Shown: positions 7,030 to 62,521 of the stretch, one piece after another
Position numbering within the stretch: position 1 is the first letter of the stretch
How the letters are laid out: each line of letters opens with the position of its first letter
From: Gammaproteobacteria bacterium
Lineage (GTDB): Bacteria > Pseudomonadota > Gammaproteobacteria > Ga0077536
Length of the DNA: 64,000 bases
Assembly (NCBI GenBank): GCA_963662545.2
Contig: CAXXLL010000002.1
Coordinates: forward strand, 1,664,001 to 1,728,000
Direction: 5' to 3'
Position numbers and translations under genes: made by a program
The notes under the pieces: generated by a model
Database searches by the model: none
The model's input: only the letters and a program-made list of their open reading frames with translations
Told to the model about the DNA's origin: nothing

Positions 7030-8346
7030 GTGTTGGCGCCGCGCTTCGGCCTGCTCTCTCTGGTCGGCCTGGTAGTCGCCAACATGATCGGCGTGGGCGT
7101 TTTTACGACCTCGGGATTCGCGCTGGCGGACCTCGGCACGCCGGACCGCGTGATGCTCGCCTGGCTGACGGGCGGCTTGCTGGCCGTTTGTGGAGCACTC
7201 AGCTATGGAGCGCTGGTGCGGCGCATGACTGATTCGGGGGGCGAATATCTGTTTCTGTCGCGTGCCATACATCCGGCGGCCGGTTTCGTTGCCGGCTGGG
7301 TGTCACTGCTGGCCGGATTTACGGGCGCCATCGCCCTGGCGGCGACGGCGCTCGAAGCGTATCTGTTGCCGGCTGGCACGCGCGCCGGCTGGATCCCCGA
7401 GGACGCGGTGGCGCTTACGGTGGTTTTCGCGGCCGGCGCCTTGCACGTCCGTAAGGTCGGTCTCGGTGCAGGCATCCAGAATGCGCTCGTGATCGTGAAA
7501 CTCGTTCTGATCGGCGCGATCACCGTCTTCGCCCTGGTGAAGCTGTCCACGACTACGGGTCCCACGGGCATGCCTTTGGCGATCGGGGATGGCGCCGTAC
7601 CGGATTTCGAGTGGTCGGGATTCGCCATAAGCCTGATGTGGATATCGCTGAGTTACTCCGGTTTCAACGCAGCGGTCTACGTCGCCGGTGAAGCCCGGGA
7701 CGCGAAACGCCAGGTTCCCCGCGCCTTGATCCTGGGCACGGTCGTCGTCACCGTCATCTACCTTGCGCTCAACGCCTTGTTCGTCTATGGCGCACCATTC
7801 GCGGCGATCGCGGGGTACGAAGACGTCGCCGCACGCGCGCTGACGGCGCTCGGCGGTGAGACCCTGGGCTTGACGATGCGCGGCATCGTCATCCTGGCGT
7901 TGGCGACTTCGGTGTCATCAATGATCATGGCCGGTCCGCGCGTCTACGCACGCATGGCCGACGACGGGGTGTTACCGCGCGTTTTCGCCACGCAGGACGG
8001 TCGGATCGCACGCGCGGTGACCTTGCAAGTAGTGCTCGCCGCGCTGATCATCGTCGTGTCGGATCTGCGGGAACTACTATCCTATCTCGGCTTCACGCTG
8101 TCGGTCAGCGCAGCCCTGACGGTCAGTAGCTTGTTTGTACTGAGGCGGCGCGAAGGCGCGGCGGCGGTGCCGGTTCCGGGTTATCCTTGGGTGCCGGGCC
8201 TTTACGTCGGTGCGACATTGATGTTTGCCGCAATCGCCGCAATGTATCGCCCGTTAGAGCCCGTCGTCGGTGTCGCCACTCTCGCGACCGGGGTCGTCGC
8301 GTGGCTCATCATCGAACGGCGGCGGAATCGTATTAAAGCTCTTTGA
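7030..8346 (+). CDS. APC family amino acid permease
   Basis: About 12 hydrophobic segments; ANMIGVGVF, SGGEY.F, SYSGFN, GPRVYARMA.DG. Confidence 0.9.
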   Translation: MLAPRFGLLSLVGLVVANMIGVGVFTTSGFALADLGTPDRVMLAWLTGGLLAVCGALSYGALVRRMTDSGGEYLFLSRAIHPAAGFVAGWVSLLAGFTGAIALAATALEAYLLPAGTRAGWIPEDAVALTVVFAAGALHVRKVGLGAGIQNALVIVKLVLIGAITVFALVKLSTTTGPTGMPLAIGDGAVPDFEWSGFAISLMWISLSYSGFNAAVYVAGEARDAKRQVPRALILGTVVVTVIYLALNALFVYGAPFAAIAGYEDVAARALTALGGETLGLTMRGIVILALATSVSSMIMAGPRVYARMADDGVLPRVFATQDGRIARAVTLQVVLAALIIVVSDLRELLSYLGFTLSVSAALTVSSLFVLRRREGAAAVPVPGYPWVPGLYVGATLMFAAIAAMYRPLEPVVGVATLATGVVAWLIIERRRNRIKAL

Positions 8347-49458: not shown

Positions 49459-51080
49459 TATTGTGTTGAAAAACGTCGGTTGAAACCGGAGTTGCACGTG
49501 AGATGCTGGAAGTTCGTCGGGTTAGCGAACCCGTTTTGGGTTTGTTCGTCGGCTCGGTGGCCGATTGTTGTTGGTTATCGGGTCAAATCCGTTAAGCGAG
49601 CACACCCATCCCACAGGGTGGCGAGCGACTTACCAGTTTGGCGAGCTTTCGAAGGTTCTGGGCAGTCGCGGCTAACAGAAACTCATCCTGTGCGCCGCTC
49701 AAGCCGCGTAATCGCAGGCGGTCCAGTTTCAGAATGCGCTTGAGATGCGCGAACAACATCTCGACCTTCTTGCGGTCGTTGCGTGACTGCGCGTAAGCCT
49801 CGGTGGTTGCGAGTGCCCGGACCCGGTCACGAGCGTCCTCGTGAATAGAGCGGTGGATCTTTCGAGCCGGTTCCTTCGGGCAGCACTGGTCTTTCAACAA
49901 GCAGTGGCCACAGTCGGATTGGCTCGCACGATAGATGATGGTGTTGGCTTTCGTGACACCGGTACGCTTGTTTTTGAACTGGCGTCGATTGCGCCTGAGC
50001 GACTTGCCGTCTGGACACAGATAACAGTCCGCTTCAGGCTTCCAGGTAAACTCAGAGCGACCGAACTGACCCTCCTTGCCCGCGGATTTATCCATCACCG
50101 GAACGTGTGGGGTAATTTGTTTCTCTTCAACTAACCAGCCGAGCATCTGTGCATTGCCGTACGCCGTGTCACCGGCGAGGTGCTCAGGTTTAACCCCGAA
50201 ACGTTTCTCAGTGTGGTCAATCATCGTACGGGCTGCTTGTGCCTCCTCGCTCAGCGTGGACGGCGAGGCTTCGACACCAACGATAATCGCCGAGTCGATG
50301 TCGATAAGATAGTTAGTCGAATAGGAGTAGTTCGCTGGCCCGCCGGGCGCCGAGGTCCAACACGATGCCGGGTCGGTCAGTGAAATCGCTTTGCGTGTTG
50401 CTTCATGGGCACGCACCACCTGCTCATCATTATCCAGTGCGTCGAGATACTCGCGTACCGCTCGGGTCTTGCGTCCTGGTCGTTCCCACTTGATGCCTTC
50501 CTTACCCGAGAACCCACGTTTACGATTTGCGTCGGCCTTAATGAGGCTCGCGTCTACCGCGAAACCTTCGCCTCCCACCAACCCTTCAGCCATACAACGC
50601 TCAACCACCGACTCAAACACGAACCGAAACAGCTCACAATCGCGGTACCGGCCATGCCGATTCTTCGAAAACGTCGAGTGCTCGGGCACCTGGTCTTCCA
50701 GACCCAGCCGACAGAACCAACGATAGGCCAAATTAAGATGAACCTCTTCGCACAGCCGGCGCTCCGAGCGGATACCAAAGCAGTAACCCACCAGCAGCAT
50801 GCGAATCATCAACTCCGGATCAATCGAAGGACGACCCATGTCACTATAGTAAGGTGCGAGGTGTTGACGTATCTGGCTGAAGTCGAGGAAGCGGTCAAGC
50901 GCACGCAGTACATGCTTCTCAGGCACGTGCTGCTCAATGCAGAACTCATAAAACAGTTGATTTTGACCCGCCGGCAGTCGTCCCATCATCGACGCGTCTC
51001 TCCGCGAAAAGGGGTACGCGGGATCTGATCAATGAATTGCCCGATAGTTCCCTGTTGTGAGCGACTTTTTCAACACAATA
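49459..51080 (-). mobile_element. IS1182 family element with 4-bp target duplication ATCC
   Basis: IRs TATTGTGTTGAAAAA and TTTTTCAACACAATA; ATCC at 49455-49458 and 51081-51084. Confidence 0.9.
49592..50989 (-). CDS. IS1182 family transposase
   Basis: GRPSIDPE, IRSERRLC, PEHSTF, GDTAYG, RKKVEMLFAHLK. Confidence 0.9.
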   Translation of the reverse strand: MMGRLPAGQNQLFYEFCIEQHVPEKHVLRALDRFLDFSQIRQHLAPYYSDMGRPSIDPELMIRMLLVGYCFGIRSERRLCEEVHLNLAYRWFCRLGLEDQVPEHSTFSKNRHGRYRDCELFRFVFESVVERCMAEGLVGGEGFAVDASLIKADANRKRGFSGKEGIKWERPGRKTRAVREYLDALDNDEQVVRAHEATRKAISLTDPASCWTSAPGGPANYSYSTNYLIDIDSAIIVGVEASPSTLSEEAQAARTMIDHTEKRFGVKPEHLAGDTAYGNAQMLGWLVEEKQITPHVPVMDKSAGKEGQFGRSEFTWKPEADCYLCPDGKSLRRNRRQFKNKRTGVTKANTIIYRASQSDCGHCLLKDQCCPKEPARKIHRSIHEDARDRVRALATTEAYAQSRNDRKKVEMLFAHLKRILKLDRLRLRGLSGAQDEFLLAATAQNLRKLAKLVSRSPPCGMGVLA

Positions 51081-51129: not shown

Positions 51130-52516
51130 GAGTTATTGTCAAAAGTGGTGTTCAGGCGGTTGAATCAAGCGGCGACCTGATTGACCCTTGTCACCTCGAT
51201 ACCATCTTCAAATTTAACTCCAGTAATCACCTTGGCCAGATAGTCGAATCCACGTAGGCGTCGCCAATTCTTCTGCGCACACCGCCCCAGCTTGAACATC
51301 ATATGGAGCATGCCGTCCCGAGAGAGACAGCCCTTGGAGCGCCGGGTCCGGTGCCGGATCGTAGCGAAGGTGGATTCAATCGGATTGCTCGTGCGAATGC
51401 TTTGCCAATGCGGTGCCGGAAAATCATAGAACACCAGCAACTCCTCACGGTCTTTCTGTAGGCACAGGGTCGCCTTGGGATACTTCGGTTCATAGGTCTT
51501 GAGGAACAGCTCGAACGCCTTCTCGGCGTCGGCCTTTGTCGCGGCCTGCCAGATCGCGTGCAGGGCTTGCCTGGCTTTGGCCTGTGCCGACTTCGGTAGG
51601 CAGTTCAGCACCGTTCATCGTCTTGTGCATCCAGCAGCGTTGCTGGCGGGTCTCACCGTAGACTTCCTCCAGTGCGGCCCAGAAGCCCATGGCACCGTCC
51701 TCGATCGCCAGCTTGGGAATATTCATCCCGCGTGACTTCAATTTCAGCAACACCTCGCGCCAGCTCTGCGTGGACTCCCGCACACCATCCTCCATCGCCA
51801 AAAAACGCTTCTCACCTCGCGCATTTACGCCGATCACCACCAACGCACACAGCTTCGTGTGCTCCGCCCGCAGGCCACTGTAGACACCGTCCGCCCACAC
51901 ATACACCCAGCGGTCTTGGTCCAATCGCCCCTCGCACCAGTCGCGGTATTCTTGCGCCCACACCTGCTTCAAGCGCGACACTGTGCTCGCCGACAGGCCC
52001 TTCGCCTGCGGCCCCAACAAAACTTCCAGCGCAGCGCCCATTTCGCCACTGGAAACGCCCTTCAAATACAGCCACGGCACGGCCGCCTCCAAGGTTCTTG
52101 TCTTGCGCACATACGGCGGCACCAGCGCTGAACGGAAGGTCACCGGCTCGCCGAGCTTCGAACGAACCTTCGGTATCCTCACCGTCACCGGCCCCAAGCC
52201 CGTCTGCAACTGTCGCTCCGGCAAATAGCCGTTCCGAACGACACCCGCTTTGTCGTCCGCCGTGCGATGGCTTGAATACTGCGCCAAATACTCTGCCAGC
52301 TCGCTTTCAACTGCTCGCTCAATCAGCGCCCGTGCACCGTTTCTCAAAACCTCCGTCAACGGATCTGAAATTCCTCCTCGACCTGATATTTCAACAACGT
52401 TACTCTCTCTCATGGTGGCGTATCCTCTTTGGTTGGCTTGCTGCTTGGTAACAACATTTCAACCAGATACGCCGCCTTTCTTCAACTATCTCAAACACCA
52501 GATTCCGTTATAACTC
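51130..52516 (-). mobile_element. IS256 family element, transposase frameshifted near 51610
   Basis: IRs GAGTTATTGTCAAAAGTGGTGTT and AACACCAGATTCCGTTATAACTC; WADG, DGAMGF, QQRCWMH, IRTSNPIES. Confidence 0.9.
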
Positions 52517-52974
52517 TGTCGATCACGAAGGGGAGGTGCTCGAAGTTTTTGCCACGAAACAGCGGGGTCGCAAGGCTGCACTGAGGTTTCTGAAACGCGC
52601 AATGAAGCGCTACGGCCGGCCAAAGGTGAGCGTGACGGACCGGCTCAAATCATACCGGGCTGCGATGAATGTGATCGGCAATGCCGCCGCTCAGACTTGC
52701 GGTCAGTGGCTCAACAATCGAGCAGAAAACTCACACCAGCCGTTCCGGCGACGGGAAGGGGCAATGGCCAGGTTCAGGGGCATCAAGACCCTGCAGAAAT
52801 TTGCTGCTGCCCACGCCTCGATCCACAATCATTTCAATCAGGAACGTCATCTTTATAACCGCGAAACCTTCAAACTCAATCGCTCCGCCGCTTTGGCCGA
52901 GTGGCGTCGACTTGTAGCCTGAGAGACCTCGATTGTTGGCTCTACTGCTCCGAGCAAGTTAGTCTGACAATGCC
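52517..52974 (+). mobile_element. IS6 family right half
   Basis: VTDRLKSY, WLNNRAENSHQPFRRRE; IRR AGTCTGACAATGCC. Confidence 0.88.
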
Positions 52975-53343
52975 ATTGGGTGTGATGGACGAGGGGATGG
53001 TCGTGCCGGATCGTGACCAGACGACACGGCCACGGCGAAGGTGGAAATGGCTCCGGCAGCCGCGCGTCCGCCAGACGGAAGGGTGCAACGAGACGGAGCC
53101 GCTGAAGTGCCGGGTGGCGCGCCAGCTCGGGGAATCGTCGGGGACGAGGCTGAGCTGGATGGTGGCGCCGCAGCCGCAGGGGCAGAGCATGGCGGCGGAC
53201 CACGGCCGCGGCCCGTCGCCGACCAGATAGAGCCGGCGAGGTTCGAGCAGATCGGGCACGTCCTCGACGGGTTCGGTCGCGAAATTCGGCCGGAGCCCCG
53301 AACGCTCTACCAGCCGCCACCACAGGTTCGCGAGAGCGGTCAA
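52942..53343 (-). CDS. DUF6527-like protein (Bub-associated); last codons supplied by IS6
   Basis: CPCGCG, SLHPSVW, GCRSHF..R.G.V.W; start overlaps upstream stop. Confidence 0.8.
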   Translation of the reverse strand: MTALANLWWRLVERSGLRPNFATEPVEDVPDLLEPRRLYLVGDGPRPWSAAMLCPCGCGATIQLSLVPDDSPSWRATRHFSGSVSLHPSVWRTRGCRSHFHLRRGRVVWSRSGTTIPSSITPNGIVRLTCSEQ

Positions 53344-54737
53344 GCGGCCTCCCTGGCAACGCTGAGTTCGGCCCAGTCGAGCAGTGGCGAGATGTCGCCC
53401 CGGCCGACGTACCGGGCTAGTACCGGGCAGGGGTCGCCGTCGCCTTCGTGTTCGTAGATGCCGTGGCTGAGGCTGAGTCGATGGACGGCGTACTCGGCGT
53501 TGGGATCCAAGCGGTACGGGTGCAAGCGGGCGAGAAACTCATTGACGGCGAGGCTCGCGAGCAGGACGTTGAGCTGCACCACGGCGGGCCGGTCCTCGTC
53601 GACGCCGCGGATGTAGCCGTCGTCGAGCAGGGCTCGGTAGGCGGCCGGATCGGTGCGGTAGAGCCCCGCTGCGCGCACCTGGTCCATGGTGTAGACGTGC
53701 CTGCTCAGCAGACTCGAGCCGCCGGGCTGGAGGTAGTGCACGGTACCGCACACCTGGTCGACGCCGCCGTGGCCGTCGGCCTCGAGCTTCACGCCGAGAT
53801 CGAAGTAAGGAATCAGGTAGAAGGTCGCCAGCTTGTTGAGGAGGTGGCGGCCGTCGATCGAGTCCATGCAGCCGAAGACGACGTCGCAGGTCGCGACGGC
53901 GCGCACGATGTCGGCGTCGAAAAGGCTTCGGGGATGGGTGTCGACCCGGGTGCCGAGTCCCATGGCCCGGATCGCACGGGCGGCGACGTCGACCTTGAGC
54001 CGTCCTTGCCGCGCATCCTCCATGGTGGCGTTGAGGATGCGGTTGAGGTTCTTCTCCTCGACGCGGTCCGGATCGACGAGCACCAGTTCGCCCACGCAGT
54101 TGCGGGCGAGCTGCTCGATCAACGGGCTCCCGGTTCCGGAACAGCCGACAACGGCGATGCGCAGGCGACGGAGACGGTCGTAGGTGCCGGCACCGAAGGT
54201 CTGGGCGATGCGGCGGCCGAACTCAGGTATGCTGGTCGTCGGCGATGCGGCGGGCCACAATGCCAGGTCGTCGCCGACGACGTTGACCGCGTGGAGCGGG
54301 TGGAAGCGGCCACGCTCGTCGACGAGTCTGCCGATCATGCGGCCGTCTTCGAACATGAGCGCGCTGCCGTGCGGCCCGGCGTCCGTCCAGGCGTGGACGG
54401 AGGGAAAGAGCTCGCGGTCGGCGCGGTCATCGATGCGGGAGAAAGGCGACGGGAGACGGTGGCCGTGCACCTTGACGACGGCGAGGCCGTGCCGGTCGGC
54501 CTGGGCGAGCACCGGTGGCAGCACCTTCGTCGGCCAGGTGACGCGTGTAGGCGTGCGCACGGAGCAGACGTGGTGAGGCACGGGGACGAGTTCGCGGACC
54601 AGCAGACGGTGTCGCTGGGCGGCTCGCCGGTGGCCGCACAATGCGAAGGCGACGGCCTCGCAGCCGTCGCCGGGGAACAGGTGGCGCTGCAGATCGGCGT
54701 GCTGGGGGCCGGTGAGCGTCAGGGTGGCGGTGCTCAC
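53340..54737 (-). CDS. JAB-peptidase/ThiF (E1-like) fusion, BubCD-type
   Basis: N-terminal DGCEAVAF and HGH-x6-S-x2-D; C-terminal VVGCSGTGS, DPDRVEEKNLNR, CMDSIDGR; GTG start at 54737. Confidence 0.85.
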   Translation of the reverse strand: MSTATLTLTGPQHADLQRHLFPGDGCEAVAFALCGHRRAAQRHRLLVRELVPVPHHVCSVRTPTRVTWPTKVLPPVLAQADRHGLAVVKVHGHRLPSPFSRIDDRADRELFPSVHAWTDAGPHGSALMFEDGRMIGRLVDERGRFHPLHAVNVVGDDLALWPAASPTTSIPEFGRRIAQTFGAGTYDRLRRLRIAVVGCSGTGSPLIEQLARNCVGELVLVDPDRVEEKNLNRILNATMEDARQGRLKVDVAARAIRAMGLGTRVDTHPRSLFDADIVRAVATCDVVFGCMDSIDGRHLLNKLATFYLIPYFDLGVKLEADGHGGVDQVCGTVHYLQPGGSSLLSRHVYTMDQVRAAGLYRTDPAAYRALLDDGYIRGVDEDRPAVVQLNVLLASLAVNEFLARLHPYRLDPNAEYAVHRLSLSHGIYEHEGDGDPCPVLARYVGRGDISPLLDWAELSVAREAA

Positions 54738-54742
54738 GGATG

Positions 54743-55426
54743 TCAGGCCCTGCCGACTTCGCGGGCGAACCAGTGCTCGACCAGGCCGAAGTGGGTGGCG
54801 AGATTGTCGACGCCGGGACGCCACGGGTTCTCGCCGGTGCGGTGGCGGCTCCAGCGCTGCCACTGCCAGCCGTCGAAAGCGTCGTTCGAGATGGCGGCGA
54901 TGGGCCTTCCGTCGGCGCGCGCGAGTCCCGGGTGGACGTAGACCATGTCGATCTGTGTGTCCGGGTAGCCGGACTCGATACGGACGTTCACGTCGGCTTG
55001 ATGGCACTGGTAGCCGGGCGGGATGGGAAAGTCGTATAGGACGACCCGCAGGACGCCGCCTTCGGCAACGAGCTCGAACCGGTGCGGCGAGCCCTCGAGC
55101 CACTCGAGGTCCTCCTCGGGTAGGACGAACTCCCGGCGTCCGCCGAAGCCCTCGGTCTGGTCGAGCGGCAGGGTCACGAAGCGCTCGACGCCGGGCTTGC
55201 TGAGGTCGATCTTCTCGTCGAGATCGAGCCGGTCCGGATGCCCGCCCTTCACCTTGAGATAGATGCCGAAGCGCTCGGCCGGCTTCTTGCCGGCGAGTTC
55301 GAGGAGCTCGCGCCCGGTCATGAGCGGGACGGGAGCCTCGAAGAAGTCCTTGTCGATCTGGACTTTGAAGTGCTGGTCGGGAACGGCGATGGTGTCGCCG
55401 GGCTTGTCGTTGCGATCCTTGGTCAT
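54743..55426 (-). CDS. Ubiquitin-like (multiubiquitin) domain fused to a prokaryotic E2 family E domain, BubAB-type
   Basis: TGRELLELAG...IDL..PGVERF...DQTEG, then LPEED, P.PPGY, GYPDTQIDM, WQRWSRH, WRPGVD. Confidence 0.85.
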   Translation of the reverse strand: MTKDRNDKPGDTIAVPDQHFKVQIDKDFFEAPVPLMTGRELLELAGKKPAERFGIYLKVKGGHPDRLDLDEKIDLSKPGVERFVTLPLDQTEGFGGRREFVLPEEDLEWLEGSPHRFELVAEGGVLRVVLYDFPIPPGYQCHQADVNVRIESGYPDTQIDMVYVHPGLARADGRPIAAISNDAFDGWQWQRWSRHRTGENPWRPGVDNLATHFGLVEHWFAREVGRA

Positions 55427-55581
55427 GGGTCGGTTCCTTCGGTTGTTGGCTGCGGTCCTACCCCCTTATGCTGGCGAGAGCGGGCGTCGCGGACACGGGG
55501 GCACTTTTTTTTCGTGGCGATGTCCGCAGACAGGCGTTTGGTGCGCATTGGAGGAGTAGGAACGGACCGCAAGCAGTCGCA

Positions 55582-56160
55582 ATGGGGCTAGTGCAACGGA
55601 AAATGGCGACGCCGAAAGAGTGCGCTGCAGCGCTGCGGAAGCTCAGCGATAAGGATTTAGGGCGACTGGACAAGGCGGCGCAGCTACGCGCGACAGGGTT
55701 GGCGAACGTGGAAGGACGCGACCTACGGAACGAGGCGATCGCGCGGATGCTGGAAGGGCGGCGGCAGTGGCCGCAGGGCGTGGCGCTGGACGTTTTCCTG
55801 CTGGAGACGATGCGAAGCATCGCTAGTGATTATCGGCGGCGGCAGAAATCGGCGCGGGTGGTCGCGGAGTCCGAGGTCCGGGCGGATTCGGAGACCGGCG
55901 ACGGCGCGATAGCAACGGCGGGGGACGTGTCGATGGCGCCGGAAGCCCGGACAGCCGCGGCGGAAACGCTAGCGCGGATCGACTCGCTGTTCAGTGAAGA
56001 CGCCGACGCGCAGGCGGTCATCGCCGGCAAGGCAAAAGGCATGTCACCGGCCGAAATTCAGAAGGAGCACGCGATGGACGAGACAAGATACGCGACGACC
56101 CTGCGCCGGATCCGGCGCGGCGTGGCTGGCTTGTCCACAGAAGGAGGGGAGCAAGCATGA
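55582..56160 (+). CDS. ECF-type sigma-factor-like protein
   Basis: Region-2-like DL..EAI.R.LEG.R.W...FL...MRSIAS; region-4-like GMSPAEI...Y.T..RRIRR. Confidence 0.65.
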   Translation: MGLVQRKMATPKECAAALRKLSDKDLGRLDKAAQLRATGLANVEGRDLRNEAIARMLEGRRQWPQGVALDVFLLETMRSIASDYRRRQKSARVVAESEVRADSETGDGAIATAGDVSMAPEARTAAAETLARIDSLFSEDADAQAVIAGKAKGMSPAEIQKEHAMDETRYATTLRRIRRGVAGLSTEGGEQA

Positions 56161-56543
56161 GCGAAAAGCGGAACGCGCTCGAGCGTCTCGAGGCGCTGTT
56201 GAGGGGTCTCGAAGACGAGGTGATGCGCAGTGAAGGGTGCGTCGGCACGGACGTGGCGGCGATGAGGGCAGAGATCGAGGCGCTGATCGAGAAGCATGTC
56301 GGCGCCACGGGGTCGGCGGAAGCTCCGGTGTCTCGGACGGGAGACGCCAAGGGCAAGGTGAGCGGCGTCGTAGAACTGCTCGGCCGGTGGGCCGGGATGG
56401 GCCAGAGCGGAGTGCGGGGGGCGCTGGCGCCGAGGGTGAGGATGGCGTTCTCCGGAACGAAGCCGAAGCAGGACGATCGGGGGAGGGGGCACCCGAGGGG
56501 CGTCGGCGATGGCGGGGACCGCCAGGGGGAAAAGGAGGACTAG
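56157..56543 (+). CDS. Hypothetical protein translationally coupled to the sigma-like gene
   Basis: ATGA overlap; RBS GGAG. Confidence 0.6.
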   Translation: MSEKRNALERLEALLRGLEDEVMRSEGCVGTDVAAMRAEIEALIEKHVGATGSAEAPVSRTGDAKGKVSGVVELLGRWAGMGQSGVRGALAPRVRMAFSGTKPKQDDRGRGHPRGVGDGGDRQGEKED

Positions 56544-56616: not shown

Positions 56617-57981
56617 ATGACGTCGGAAGTGGTGGTCATGAATCGGCTGGGCGTAGCGCTGGCCGCCGACAGCGCCGTCACGGTCGACATGGGTCAAAGC
56701 TCGAAGGTGCGGGACTCGGCGCTGAAGGTCTTCATGCTCTCGAAGTACCGGCCCGTGGGCGTGATGGTGTACAACAACGCGTCGCTCCTAGGGGTGCCCC
56801 TGGAGACGGCGATCAAGGTGTTCAGGCAGGTGCTGGGACGGAACGGCTACCCGAAGCTCCACGAGTATGGGGACGCGTTCGTCGAGTACCTGAACTCGAA
56901 CCGCTCGTTGTTCCCGCAGGCGGTCCAGGACAGGTACTTCGTCGCCGCGTTGGAGGTCGAATACGAACGCATAGCGGAGTTCGTGGAGAAGGCGCTCGCG
57001 AGCGGGGTCTACGGTCCGGAGGACGAAGAAAGTCAAGAGACGGCGGTCGAAACGGCGGACCGGATCATCGCTGAACGGCTGGCGTTCTGGGAGAGCCAGA
57101 GCGACGCGGATTACTTTGACGCGGATTACTTTGAGGTGAGCGCAGAGGACGTCGTCGGGCGGAACTCCGGCAACGTGCTCGACGTGATCAATCGGAAGTT
57201 CCTCGGCTGGACCGCCGTGAGCGACGAGGCGCGACAGCACCTGTACGAGATTGCGAAGTACCTCGTGTGTAAGGACCACTTCCCGCCGGATGTTTTGACC
57301 GGTCTCGTGATCGCCGGATTCGGCGGGGAGGAGCACTTCCCGGTGGTTCAGCACTTGGAGTTTGGCGGGATATACGACAACCGGCTCAAGGTGCGGCCGG
57401 CGACTTTGCACGAGGTTTCCGACGACGTACCGTCCGAGGTATTGGCGTTCGCGTACCAGGACATGGTGGACGGGTTTCTCGACGGGATTTCTCCGGATGT
57501 GTTCGAACATCTGGGGGACGCTGCCGCCTTCATCCGGGAGATGCCCGTGGTGGCCCTGGACGCGGTGGAAGGGATTGCGCCGGAAGCTAAGGAAAAAGCA
57601 GCGGAGATCATCCGGCAGGAGAGCGTGAGGAAGGCGGGAGACTTCGCACGCGGCGTTCTTCGCGGTGCGGAGGAGAGACGCGGGCAGATCGAGCAGGCAG
57701 TGGAGGCCTTGTCGCTGAAGGAGCTGGCGCAAGTCGCGTCGACCTTGGTGGGTCTGAGTTCGTTCGAGCATCAGATGTCCCTGGATCGGGAGACGGTCGG
57801 TGGACCTGTGGACGTGGCCGTTATCTCGAAAGGAGACGGATTCATCTGGATGGACCGCAAGCACTATTTTCGGCGGGAGCTGAATAGCCATTTTTTTCGG
57901 AGATATTTCGATGGTGCGGCGCCCGAGAGTGACGATGATCCAGTGGGGGACGACGAGGAGGAGATGTCGGATGGCGAATGA
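56617..57981 (+). CDS. Proteasome-beta/Ntn-hydrolase-like protein with large insertions
   Basis: (M)TSEVVVMNRLGVALAADS...KVF gives Thr1, Asp17, Lys36; C-terminal ETVGGPVDVAVISK.DG. Confidence 0.7.
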   Translation: MTSEVVVMNRLGVALAADSAVTVDMGQSSKVRDSALKVFMLSKYRPVGVMVYNNASLLGVPLETAIKVFRQVLGRNGYPKLHEYGDAFVEYLNSNRSLFPQAVQDRYFVAALEVEYERIAEFVEKALASGVYGPEDEESQETAVETADRIIAERLAFWESQSDADYFDADYFEVSAEDVVGRNSGNVLDVINRKFLGWTAVSDEARQHLYEIAKYLVCKDHFPPDVLTGLVIAGFGGEEHFPVVQHLEFGGIYDNRLKVRPATLHEVSDDVPSEVLAFAYQDMVDGFLDGISPDVFEHLGDAAAFIREMPVVALDAVEGIAPEAKEKAAEIIRQESVRKAGDFARGVLRGAEERRGQIEQAVEALSLKELAQVASTLVGLSSFEHQMSLDRETVGGPVDVAVISKGDGFIWMDRKHYFRRELNSHFFRRYFDGAAPESDDDPVGDDEEEMSDGE

Positions 57982-58249
57982 GCGGGACAGAAATAGGCCG
58001 GTGCGGGGGAAACCGGATCGGCCAGGTGGCGAGGGACAGGCGATGGCGTTCGAGAAGCTGGTTCGCAGGGCTCCGCAGTTCCGAGGCTTGGCCAAGGTAG
58101 CTCAAGGCGACGAAGAAAAGCTTACCGCATCACAGAAGAAGTTCCTGAACGAGTTCACCGTGGGTCTGGCCAAAGGCGTGGGGGAGAGCGAATCCCAGCA
58201 GGATGCCACGACTGAAGTGGGAACCGGGAAGCGAACCCAGGGACGCTAG
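57971..58249 (+). CDS. Small hypothetical protein overlapping the end of the Ntn gene
   Basis: ATG 57971 with GGAGGAG upstream. Confidence 0.45.
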   Translation: MANERDRNRPVRGKPDRPGGEGQAMAFEKLVRRAPQFRGLAKVAQGDEEKLTASQKKFLNEFTVGLAKGVGESESQQDATTEVGTGKRTQGR

Positions 58250-58818: not shown

Positions 58819-59623
58819 GGCATAGTTAGAGTAAATCGTCTTGAGCCACCCATTGAGGTCTTCTAGCCTGTAGGAATGCAAAATCGCTTCCGCTATTTCA
58901 ACAGTGCGCCCGAGGTCATTCGCCTCGCGGTGATGTTGTACATCCGCTATCCGCTTTCGTTGCGCCAAGTTGAAGACATTCTGTTCGAACGGGGCATCGA
59001 CATCTGCCACGAGGCGGTGCGGTACTGGTGGAACCGCTTTGGTCCCCTGTTTGCAGCTGAGATCCGGAAACGCCGCGTTCATCATGGATCCTATTCGAAC
59101 TGGCGCTGGCATCTTGATGAGGTGTTTGTCCGGGTTAACGGCGAGATACATTATCTATGGCGCGCTGTCGATCATGAAGGAGAGGTACTCGAGGCTTTTG
59201 CCACGAAACAGCGGGATCGCAGAGCGGCACTGAGGTTTCTGAAACGCGCAATGAAGCGCTACGGCCGGCCAAAGGTGATCGTGACGGACCGGCTCAAATC
59301 ATACCGGGCTGCGATGAATGTGATCGGCAATACCGTCGCTCAGACTTGCGGTCGGTGGCTCAACAATAGAGCAGAAAACTCACATCAGCCCTTTCGGCGA
59401 CAAGAAGGGGCAATGGCCAGGTTCAGGGACATCAAGACCCTGCAGAAATTTGTTGCCGCCCACGCCTCGGTCCACAGTCATCCCAATCAGGAACGTCATC
59501 TTTACAGTCGCGAGGACTTCAAACTCGATCGTTCCGCCGCTTTGGCCGAGTGGCGTCGACTTGCAGCCTGAGAGACCTCAATTGTTGGCTCTACTGCTCC
59601 GATCAACTCAGTCTGACAACGCC
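58819..59623 (+). mobile_element. IS6 family element, complete
   Basis: IRL GGCATAGTTAGAGT and IRR AGTCTGACAACGCC. Confidence 0.9.
58876..59571 (+). CDS. IS6 family transposase
   Basis: YPLSLRQVE, WHLDEVF, YLWRAVD, VTD, LNNRAENSH. Confidence 0.92.
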   Translation: MQNRFRYFNSAPEVIRLAVMLYIRYPLSLRQVEDILFERGIDICHEAVRYWWNRFGPLFAAEIRKRRVHHGSYSNWRWHLDEVFVRVNGEIHYLWRAVDHEGEVLEAFATKQRDRRAALRFLKRAMKRYGRPKVIVTDRLKSYRAAMNVIGNTVAQTCGRWLNNRAENSHQPFRRQEGAMARFRDIKTLQKFVAAHASVHSHPNQERHLYSREDFKLDRSAALAEWRRLAA

Positions 59624-60444: not shown

Positions 60445-61176
60445 TTAATCTGTGTGCTTGATTCTCCAACTGTCGTTGCCTGTTTCGATGATGTCGCAGT
60501 GATGTGTTACTCGATCCAGCAGTGCGGTCGTCATTTTCTTGTCGCCAAAGACCGCTGGCCATTCACCGAAGGCCAGGTTGGTGGTGATGATGACCGAGGT
60601 GCGTTGATAAAGATGAGAGAGCAGGTGGAAAACGAGCTGGCCGCCATTCTTTGAAAATGGCAGATAACCGAGTTCATCGAGCACCACCAGTTCGGTGTAT
60701 TTAGCCAGTCGATCGGCAAGACGACCGCCTTTGCCGTTGAGTTTTTCCTGTTCGAGCGGGTTGGCCAGATCAACCCGGTTGAAAAACTTGGCCCGATAGC
60801 CGGATCGCACAGCCTGCGAGGCGATGGCGGTTGCCAAATGCGTTTTACCGGTACCCGTGCCGCCGACAAAAACAATGTTGCGGTGTTCCTCGATAAAGTC
60901 GCCACCGTAGAGGCTCTTGATCTGCGTCTCTTCGACGGAGAGCTTGTCGAACTCGAAGCTGTCCAGATCTTTGGACACTGGGAATCGTGCCTGCGTCATG
61001 CGGTAACGAATCGATCGTGCCTGACGCTCACGGACCTCGATCTCGAAGAGTTGCTCGATGACGGTCTCGGTCGTTTGCTTACGCTTGCGGGCGGTGGCGA
61101 GGACCTCATCATAGGCTTTCGGGATCGCCACAAACTTCAGGGACTTCATCAGCCCCATCACATAATCACGCGACAT
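60445..61176 (-). CDS. istB: IstB ATPase
   Basis: [25 protein letters not shown]. Confidence 0.9.
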
Positions 61177-62521
61177 GGACCCCCTCCTTCCTGAAGCGGT
61201 CATAACGGGCGCAGTCTGCAACCGGCGGTTCGTTGAGTTCCAGGTGGGCCGGGATGGTGACGATTTCGGGACTGGCTTCCTCATGTTGGCGGGCCAGCAG
61301 GTTGATGATGACGTCGCGGCTCACCGAGCCGTTGCTCCGTGCCTCGTTGCAAGCATCGGCAACGGCATCCAGGCCATAGCCTGGTAGGCAGGCGAGGATG
61401 TCGACCAGTTGCCGATCCCAGTCGGGATAATGCTTCAGCCGCTGCCAGGTGCGATGAATGGAGCGGGGCAGATCCCAGTCCTTGAACGGTGCGCCGTTGC
61501 GTAACGCTCCGGGCTTCTTCTGCAGCACCGGCAGGTAATGCCACGGGTCGAAGATCATTTGATCGCGCTGGAAGCAGCGTGAATGCTGGGCCACGCACTC
61601 GCCACCGTGCATCACCACGATCTTGTCGGCATAGCTTCTGAGCTCAGCGGTCCGACCGGGCGCTTTGCAAGCGACGCTGTAGCGATTGCGGTCAAAACTC
61701 ACCAGCGAGGTTGAACTGACGCGCACGGTACGTTCGGCATAACCGTCAAAGGCCCGTGGCAATGTCAGTAACGAAGGTCGTTCAGACACAAAGACGGACC
61801 ATACTGTCTGATCCTTGAGGACTGGGTGACGCTGATTCTTCACCCACTGCAGGCACTCCGCCCGTAGTGCGTGGTTGAGATCATCGAGGCTCGCGGCTTT
61901 GCGCGTGGGCGTGAACAATCGCCGTCGGACCGTGCGCACCTGGTTCTCCACCTGACCTTTCTCCCAGCCCGCGGCCGGCGTACAGGCCACCGGCTCAAAA
62001 AGGTAATGACTGGCCAGTTCCTCGAAGCGGCGGTTGAAGTCGCGTTCCTTGCCTCGCAGGATGCGGCACACGGCCGTCTTCATGTTGTCGTAAATGCCGC
62101 GCCGGGTGACGCCACCGAAAAACTCGAAGGCTCTGCGATGGGCATCGAACACCATCTCCTGTGACTCGCGAAGATAAGCGACGGTCAGGAACAGTCGGCT
62201 GTGACACAAGCGGAGGTGGGCAATCTTCACGTCGGTCATGGCCCCGGCAAAGACGATCTTCTCGTGGCTCCAGTCAAACTGGAAGGCCTCGCCGGGCTCG
62301 AATACGAGTGGGATGTAGGCGTCGGTAGGACTTCCCTGATGTTCTGCCCGCCAGTTCTTCACAAAACGACGCACGCTATCGTAAGCACCGCGGTAACCTT
62401 CGGCCTGCAGTGCCTCGTAGTAACCTTGCGCTGTACGCCGTTGCTTCAACGGCAGAGGCTGATCGTGCTTCAACAACGTCGTCAATGTATCGATAAACGG
62501 ACCGAGCTTGGGTCGGTGCAC
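61166..62521 (-). pseudogene. istA: IstA transposase lacking its N-terminal HTH
   Basis: FQFDW, YDNMKTAV, AGWEKGQVE. Confidence 0.85.

Follow-up and report, generated by a model that had tools for sequence, protein, structure and literature searches.

A predicted proteasome-fold hydrolase as candidate switch protease of a sigma-factor cassette divergent from a Type I Bub operon

An oversized proteasome-β-like protein is encoded at positions 56617..57981 of the window, the stretch of 64,000 nucleotides analysed here (contig CAXXLL010000002.1 of assembly GCA_963662545.2 of a gammaproteobacterium, positions 1,664,001 to 1,728,000 of the forward strand). The protein fits a family already known as 'PMI', for Proteasome homolog with Multiple Insertions (PMC8665760). 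The locus raises the question of what such an enzyme does when its gene lies in one operon with a sigma-factor-like gene and faces a ubiquitin-like conjugation operon of the Bub type. The answer that we favour, with a probability of about 0.55, is that PMI would act as the signal-responsive protease of a sigma/anti-sigma switch turning on Bub.

The open reading frame is on the plus strand and comprises 454 codons without a stop. Its translation begins with MTSEVVVMNRLGVALAADS and contains ALKVF (with K37), LVIAGFG and TVGGPVDVAVISKGDG, the landmarks to which the original prediction had drawn attention from the letters of the DNA alone. We count the initiator methionine, so that T2, D18 and K37 in our numbering are T1, D17 and K36 in that prediction. 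A GGAG lies 6 nt 5′ of the ATG, and the start is backed by an 'MT' start in 124 of 140 representatives of the family. T2 is absent from nine of the 140; these are N-terminally short gene calls, eight of which start with 'MN' at the position of M8. The 5.58-Mb genome contains one copy of the gene. The protein has no match in Pfam even at E up to 10, PF00227 (Proteasome) included, and searches of NCBIfam, PADLOC and the PDB sequences return no useful match; a profile of 38 relatives meets only chance matches among PDB sequences. Relatives are abundant: a word-indexed search finds at least 2782 of similar length, and an exhaustive search finds 4742 cluster representatives at E up to 0.001, of which 1893 remain at a limit of 1e-30. 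All of the named relatives are annotated 'hypothetical'. We confirmed 450 PMI loci in species-representative genomes; they are mostly bacterial, with Methanosarcinales, ANME and Altarchaeum among them.

The AlphaFold2 model of PMI, calculated with 38 relatives as input, has a mean predicted local distance difference test score (pLDDT) of 78 and a predicted template-modelling score (pTM) of 0.74. It contains three strand blocks (residues 4-52, 228-278 and 398-414); residues 101-218 and 322-363 form long helices, and the tail at 415-454 is disordered. In a Foldseek search of the PDB, the top matches are Anbu (5nyj, 5nyw) and 20S β subunits, with E about 3e-4 and probability 1.00. Alignment with active β5/β2 subunits by VIA-align gives a Z of 14.7 and a root-mean-square deviation of 3.8 for 186 aligned residues, with PMI residues 2..418 laid over chain residues 1..194 and T2 falling on Thr1. 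The model thus supports a proteasome-β/Anbu-like N-terminal nucleophile (Ntn) hydrolase fold. The putative catalytic residues are also highly conserved. Among 140 representatives, one for each cluster at 50% identity, T2 is kept in 131, D18 in 139 and K37 in all 140; S19 and N9 (140 each), G48 (137) and the acidic residues E392, D399 and D407 (140 each) are kept as well. T2 is therefore the predicted nucleophile, presumably exposed by removal of the initiator methionine. Since the core alignment covers 186 residues, about 250 residues are extra to the proteasome core, and they are found in two helical insertions (about 95-225 and 316-366) and in the acidic disordered tail (415-454). The net charge is −16 in residues 95-225, −8 in the tail and −38 in the whole protein. 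The original prediction had proposed this fold, an unprocessed Met-Thr N-terminus with no propeptide and about 250 additional acidic, helical residues, and had named the conservation of the three catalytic residues beforehand as a test; the model and the alignment bear out each of these points. Its suggestions that the additional residues may serve as sensor, gate or substrate adaptor, and that the enzyme may be a protease or a transpeptidase, agree with our results.

We compared PMI with the described members of the proteasome superfamily. Anbu, HslV, BPH and the 20S β subunits have the fold and the catalytic residue set in common with PMI and are its best structural matches, but they are ring-forming proteins of about 180-240 residues with no large insertions, whereas PMI has 454 residues. 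Fuchs, Alva & Lupas (2021, Bioinformatics, PMC8665760) describe 22 new proteasome homologs, six being 'PMI' groups, which had been overlooked owing to low pairwise similarity to the known proteasome-like proteins. According to that paper, propeptides are confined to proteasome β and HslV, insertions at H1/H2 and H3/H4 are expected to hinder ring and double-ring assembly, and PMI-4 is the largest group, with 501 sequences at nr90 from most bacterial phyla and Euryarchaeota. In our AlphaFold2 model, the helices at 101-218 lie between the H1/H2 pair and strands 228-278, and the helix at 322-363 lies between H3 and H4. With insertions at both sites, the protein fits PMI-3 or PMI-4 (representatives HDY66466.1 and OGZ26396.1), which it also resembles in its β core with equivalents of Thr1, Asp17 and Lys33 and in the lack of a propeptide. 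The wide spread of the family across bacterial phyla and Euryarchaeota is like that of PMI-4, and PMI-4 is the most likely assignment, made by topology and distribution; the members of the clusters found here carry accessions other than those of the two representatives. The same paper reports no genomic context that hints at the function of the new homologs; unlike the published PMI-3 and PMI-4 groups, one clade analysed here has a strictly conserved gene context.

PMI is the third gene of a tight plus-strand operon. The operon begins with a gene for a protein of about 190 residues at 55582..56160, the frame of which is open from 55468 with a conserved start at 55582. The start of the second gene, at 56157..56543, overlaps the stop of the first; it encodes a small helical protein of 128 residues, a putative anti-sigma protein. 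The fourth gene, at 57974..58249, encodes a protein of about 91 residues, and its start overlaps the stop of PMI.

The AlphaFold2 model of the first gene product has two helical domains (pLDDT 81), and rows 1-10 of its Foldseek matches hold sigma factors only, mostly of the extracytoplasmic function (ECF) type (SigH, SigL, sigmaE), with E values of 4e-3 to 7e-2 and probabilities of 0.80-1.00. The first seven rows have probabilities of 0.99-1.00, and AlgU, SigW and CnrH appear lower in the list. Sequence models are weak for this protein: SigH in the PDB is matched at E 0.52, and Sigma70_r2 is matched by five of 20 members with a best E of 0.0025. Relatives reach E 8e-5 for Sigma70_r2 and 9e-4 for Sigma70_ECF. 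Judged by its predicted structure, the gene encodes an ECF-type factor of the sigma-70 family with sigma-2 and sigma-4 domains. Relatives of the 128-residue protein have a common N-terminal helix (RLDALLxGLE) and C-terminal segment (LLxRL..R..P....MAF), and the small proteins of four PMI-type cassettes remain without a Pfam match at E up to 0.01. In a three-chain complex prediction with the sigma factor, PMI and the small protein, the score of the small protein is independent of the presence of PMI, in a design that is outside the calibration of the tool; it speaks neither for nor against binding. The protein encoded after PMI matches no Pfam family. An alignment of 12 sequences of about 75-95 residues shows that its start and the motifs KLLxRAPQF and SQQEFLDDF are conserved, and the family is found in gamma-type cassettes only. 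The tripeptide 'MAF', which both small proteins of the window contain, was rejected as a common feature, as it is not conserved in the downstream one.

The operon on the opposite strand begins with bubAB at 54743..55426, which encodes a ubiquitin-like (Ubl) Multi_ubiq domain (E 3.7e-13) fused to Prok-E2_E (E 9.9e-35). It is followed by bubCD at 53340..54743, the start of which is taken from tblastn matches in relatives and the product of which combines an extra N-terminal domain with a ThiF-type E1 domain (residues 177-318, E 4.5e-30). The N-terminal part of about 170 residues, expected to be a JAB/JAMM peptidase, has no Pfam match at E up to 0.1. The last gene, bubE at 52942..53343, encodes a DUF6527 protein (E 8.7e-22). 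By its domain signatures this operon is Type I Bub, with BubAB, BubCD and BubE in the published order. The Type I operon is the one designated 6E.1 / DUF6527 (Ye, Gong, Chambers & Corbett 2024, bioRxiv 10.1101/2024.11.21.623953) and corresponds to the '6e' neighbourhood of Iyer et al. 2006 (PMC1779556). PMI, encoded on the other side of the intergenic region, has not been described as a component of Bub.

To analyse the conservation of this arrangement, we clustered the open reading frames of the 80 best genome loci and the window, 81 loci in total. A sigma-like gene is present in 24 of them and is always just upstream of PMI. The gene for the Bub E1 is on the opposite strand in 23 of the 24, and the exception (L010) is cut by a contig end. 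These loci come from alpha-, beta- and gammaproteobacteria, with Mesorhizobium, Bradyrhizobium, Sphingomonas, Novosphingobium, Rubrivivax and Hydrogenophaga among the hosts, and the PMI proteins of the context-bearing loci are 38-78% identical to that of the window. The remaining 56 loci, from many phyla and archaea and with PMI proteins about 31-35% identical, have unrelated and variable neighbours, in agreement with Fuchs et al. (PMC8665760). A scan of metagenomes seeded on the sigma alignment yields 46 loci. PMI follows the sigma gene in 32 of these and Peptidase_M78 in three, and the remaining 11 have less than 600 nt after the sigma gene and cannot be scored. In total, the divergent arrangement of bubAB and the sigma gene is found in 53 loci. 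In a random sample of 401 genomes of the phylum, the sigma-like protein is present in only three, the window's own genome included, and the sample yielded no context. In a maximum-likelihood tree of PMI from a quick search with 87 rows, the context-bearing proteins form one clade of 39 rows with an SH-like approximate likelihood ratio test (SH-aLRT) support of 98. Bub is present in 36 of the 39; L010 and L084 have the sigma gene and no Bub in the DNA fetched, and L028 is in another context. L084 is one of four near-identical contigs (L084-L087) with the sigma gene, the small protein, PMI and a promoter-like motif upstream of sigma; no Bub gene is found in the 8.6 kb fetched, of which about 1.1 kb lie upstream of sigma. 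The conserved linkage is strong evidence of co-selection.

Some loci place PMI or the sigma gene in other company. On L084:1-8657 (also on L085-L087) genes for a YAcAr (SLOG) protein and for a NikA-like mobilisation protein are among the neighbours, and a YAcAr gene also adjoins the sigma gene of L082, a locus with sigma only. In L028 (3178-9329), the PMI gene of the clade comes after genes for a 5-hmdU DNA kinase helical domain, a ThsB-TIR-like protein, Nmad2, MazG_C and a member of the uracil-DNA glycosylase (UDG) superfamily, with no sigma gene; this neighbourhood looks like a DNA-hypermodification cluster. An upstream frame of 197 residues in L028 was considered as a sigma factor and rejected at an hhalign probability of 0.3%. 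In five loci of methanogens and ANME (L047, L054, L058, L059 and L067), PMI directly follows cdhA (Prismane/CODH, for carbon monoxide dehydrogenase) on the same strand, with cdhB (CO_dh epsilon subunit) in four; this is a second, unrelated conserved context of the family. In the actinobacterial locus L079, an E1-like gene is 3.5 kb from PMI, with an M78 peptidase gene of its own adjoining and a gene for a SEC-C protein between; we rejected it as a second link between PMI and E1 and regard it as a defence-island coincidence.

The region between bubAB and the sigma gene, 155 bp long in the window and 125-180 bp in most loci, contains a promoter-like motif in both directions. In the window, TGTCCG-N18-GCAT faces the sigma operon at 55521..55548 on the plus strand and faces bubAB at 55468..55495 on the minus strand. 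We searched 49 distinct intergenic regions, 8155 bases in all, for TGTC[CT][GA]-N(15-19)-GCAT, for which about 0.06 matches are expected by chance. The motif points towards sigma in 44 regions, towards bubAB in 41 and in both directions in 37, and the spacer is exactly 18 in all 85 instances although 15-19 were allowed. The gap between the two boxes is looser: of the 37 regions, 35 have 9-36 nt there, and the remaining two have 224 and 461 nt. A spacer that is fixed within each site, with a variable distance from one site to the other, resembles two back-to-back promoters of the sigma-70 type, not a single palindromic operator, and the motif would be the promoter that is read by the sigma factor of the cassette. 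One further match in the 64-kb window, TGTCCA...GCAT at 7544 on the plus strand, is probably due to chance.

Related cassettes contain a different protease. In L119, L122 and L123, a sigma homolog (tblastn E 1e-16 to 1e-19) is followed by a small protein of 150 residues and by Peptidase_M78 (PF06114, E about 1e-11). The divergent genes in L122 and L123 encode a patatin phospholipase and a SMODS CD-NTase, the components of an antiphage signalling system based on cyclic oligonucleotides (CBASS), and TGTCCG-N18-GCAT points at the patatin gene in both. A profile comparison shows that the small protein of one cassette type is homologous to that of the other over the full length (hhalign probability 93%, E 3.4e-7, 118 columns). 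With homologous sigma factors, homologous small proteins and the same motif, the two types are therefore one module, in which the protease slot is filled by either an M78 zinc peptidase or PMI. CapP is a member of PF06114. Lau et al. (2022, bioRxiv 10.1101/2022.04.27.489752) describe how CapP cleaves the repressor CapH, whereupon CBASS is induced after DNA damage, and report that '24 systems' also encode a sigma-70-family factor. The PMI cassette is like CapH and CapP in that genes for a small regulator and a protease are found upstream of a divergent defence operon, here in 53 loci, and the 128-residue protein occupies the CapH slot. The proteases differ: CapP is an M78 zinc peptidase, whereas PMI is a proteasome-fold threonine hydrolase without a Pfam match. 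CapH is a helix-turn-helix repressor; in the Pfam scan of the four small proteins of PMI-type cassettes, no helix-turn-helix is detected. The signal of CapP is single-stranded DNA, whereas the insertions of PMI are strongly acidic.

Fold, catalytic-residue conservation, gene order, sigma fold, the motif of fixed spacing and homology to the M78 cassettes are what the analysis shows. The switch that we propose on this basis would work as follows. In resting cells, the small protein would keep the sigma factor inactive. A signal of stress or infection, perhaps received through the acidic helical insertions, would lead the Thr1 site of PMI to cleave the small protein. The freed sigma factor would then read the two back-to-back promoters and switch on bubAB-bubCD-bubE together with its own operon, giving positive feedback. 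Here we infer the use of the motif as a promoter by this sigma factor, the anti-sigma role of the small protein, its cleavage by PMI and the nature of the signal. It fits this scheme that many Bub operons have no known regulator: among 544 catalogued operons, 219 have CapW or CapH with CapP, and 59 have CapK with CapS (PMC13373217).

Several points weigh against such a switch. In pairwise BLASTP, the small proteins of PMI and M78 cassettes resemble each other weakly (E 0.003). Because the insertions are acidic, sensing of single-stranded DNA in the manner of CapP is unlikely. A site-specific regulator with a proteasome fold has one precedent in the family, connectase, which is a ligase. Conserved neighbours are absent outside the clade, so a regulator role cannot be the general function of the family. 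Within the clade, since all of the Bub-linked PMI proteins belong to it, the linkage looks like essentially one evolutionary event, inherited as an island, rather than a set of independent replicates. PMI-type cassettes are met only with Type I Bub, apart from one lineage in which the DNA fetched holds no Bub, and never with CBASS or other systems; this exclusive pairing would fit a specific functional tie to Bub.

Such a tie is the substance of the main rival, in which PMI is a downstream effector of Bub that recognises BubA-tagged proteins or BubA itself and degrades or clips them. Ubiquitin and proteasome would then have a coupled counterpart in bacteria, which sigma and the small protein merely co-regulate. 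PMI is next to Type I Bub in 36 of 39 clade rows, no other defence system is seen with its cassette, and one and the same motif would drive the expression of PMI and of bubAB; the role and targets of Bub are described as not yet established (Ye et al. 2024, bioRxiv 10.1101/2024.11.21.623953). However, PMI is located in the regulator operon and not in the Bub operon, and its slot holds a CapP-type peptidase in the homologous cassettes attached to CBASS. In the DNA fetched for L084-L087 and L028, members of the clade are present without Bub, neither an unfoldase nor a Ubl-binding domain is detected, and the linkage goes back to one origin. The published descriptions of the 544 catalogued operons, as far as available and with the operon table outside the comparison, do not mention PMI. 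We therefore consider an effector role unlikely.

The location of the insertions bears on both of the other proposals, each of which we regard as improbable. One is that PMI is a sequence-specific transpeptidase or ligase that joins or remodels one of the small proteins of the cassette instead of destroying it. Connectase (DUF2121) is a precedent for a ligase on the proteasome fold, with helical insertions that give specificity (PMC8665760), and PMI would resemble it as a proteasome-fold enzyme with helical additions that acts on a specific partner and is probably not a ring protease; two conserved small proteins flank PMI, and a propeptide is absent. Yet connectase differs in its insertion at S3/S4, its C-terminal β-barrel and its restriction to methanogens. 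In the AlphaFold2 model, no helices are present between PMI strands 22-31 and 38-42, and the insertions are found after H1/H2 and between H3 and H4 instead of at the S3/S4 site. PMI has no recognizable connectase motif and no Pfam match, and the M78 enzyme that replaces it in the sister cassettes is a hydrolase. The other proposal holds that PMI is a general self-compartmentalising protease or a stress protease that has no specific partner and shares the mobile island by chance. In its favour, a conserved context is absent from the wider family and the island is bracketed by insertion sequence (IS) elements, but the gene order, the overlapping or closely spaced frames and the motif are kept down to about 38% PMI identity in alpha-, beta- and gammaproteobacteria, and insertions at H1/H2 and H3/H4 should hinder the assembly of a ring (Fuchs et al., PMC8665760).

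The flanks of the island and the available RNA data complete the description of the locus. A truncated gene for an IS6/IS240-family transposase is on the left, at 52536..52922 on the plus strand (DDE_Tnp_IS240, E 1.5e-21), and a full one is on the right, at 58876..59571 on the same strand (E 4.6e-42); together, they bracket the Bub/PMI island in the manner of a composite transposon. Other IS genes nearby are a split one of Mutator type at 51165-52413 and one with DDE_Tnp_1 at 49592-50989, and a pair of frames at 60445-62521 on the minus strand is presumably istA/istB of an IS21-type element. Metatranscriptomic contigs from two libraries cover only 54301-55152 and those from a library guessed to be RNA only 56227-56397, both 100% identical and at low depth, and none from the RNA libraries examined covers PMI; this coverage indicates neither transcription nor silence.

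The PMI family itself and the protease-driven derepression of defence operons are known already. A proteasome-fold switch protease, a sigma cassette beside Type I Bub and the motif were not found in the literature searched; the supplementary tables of the Bub and CapH/CapP papers, outside this search, may list such neighbours. One clade of what is probably the largest PMI group gains a precise and testable context. We give about even odds to the reading that PMI is the recruited sensor protease of a Bub-activating sigma/anti-sigma switch; it would then represent a new class of 'Cap' regulator, and this would be the first cellular role for any PMI homolog. Bub pathways are characterised biochemically, but about half of the catalogued Bub operons have no identified regulator, and the cassette is a candidate regulator with a defined motif, in which the 128-residue protein is the candidate substrate and T2A the obvious active-site mutant. 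The replacement of an M78 zinc peptidase by a non-orthologous threonine hydrolase of the proteasome fold, in an otherwise homologous switch, would bear on the evolution of defence regulators. The locus also places an enzyme of the proteasome family side by side with a ubiquitin-like conjugation system in bacteria. A degradation signal is considered unlikely in bacteria in the companion Bub paper (10.1101/2024.11.21.623966), and the pairing of PMI with Bub therefore deserves a direct test. In the boldest version, the same enzyme would also act on BubA conjugates, and this would couple Ubl tagging to a protease of the proteasome family in bacteria.

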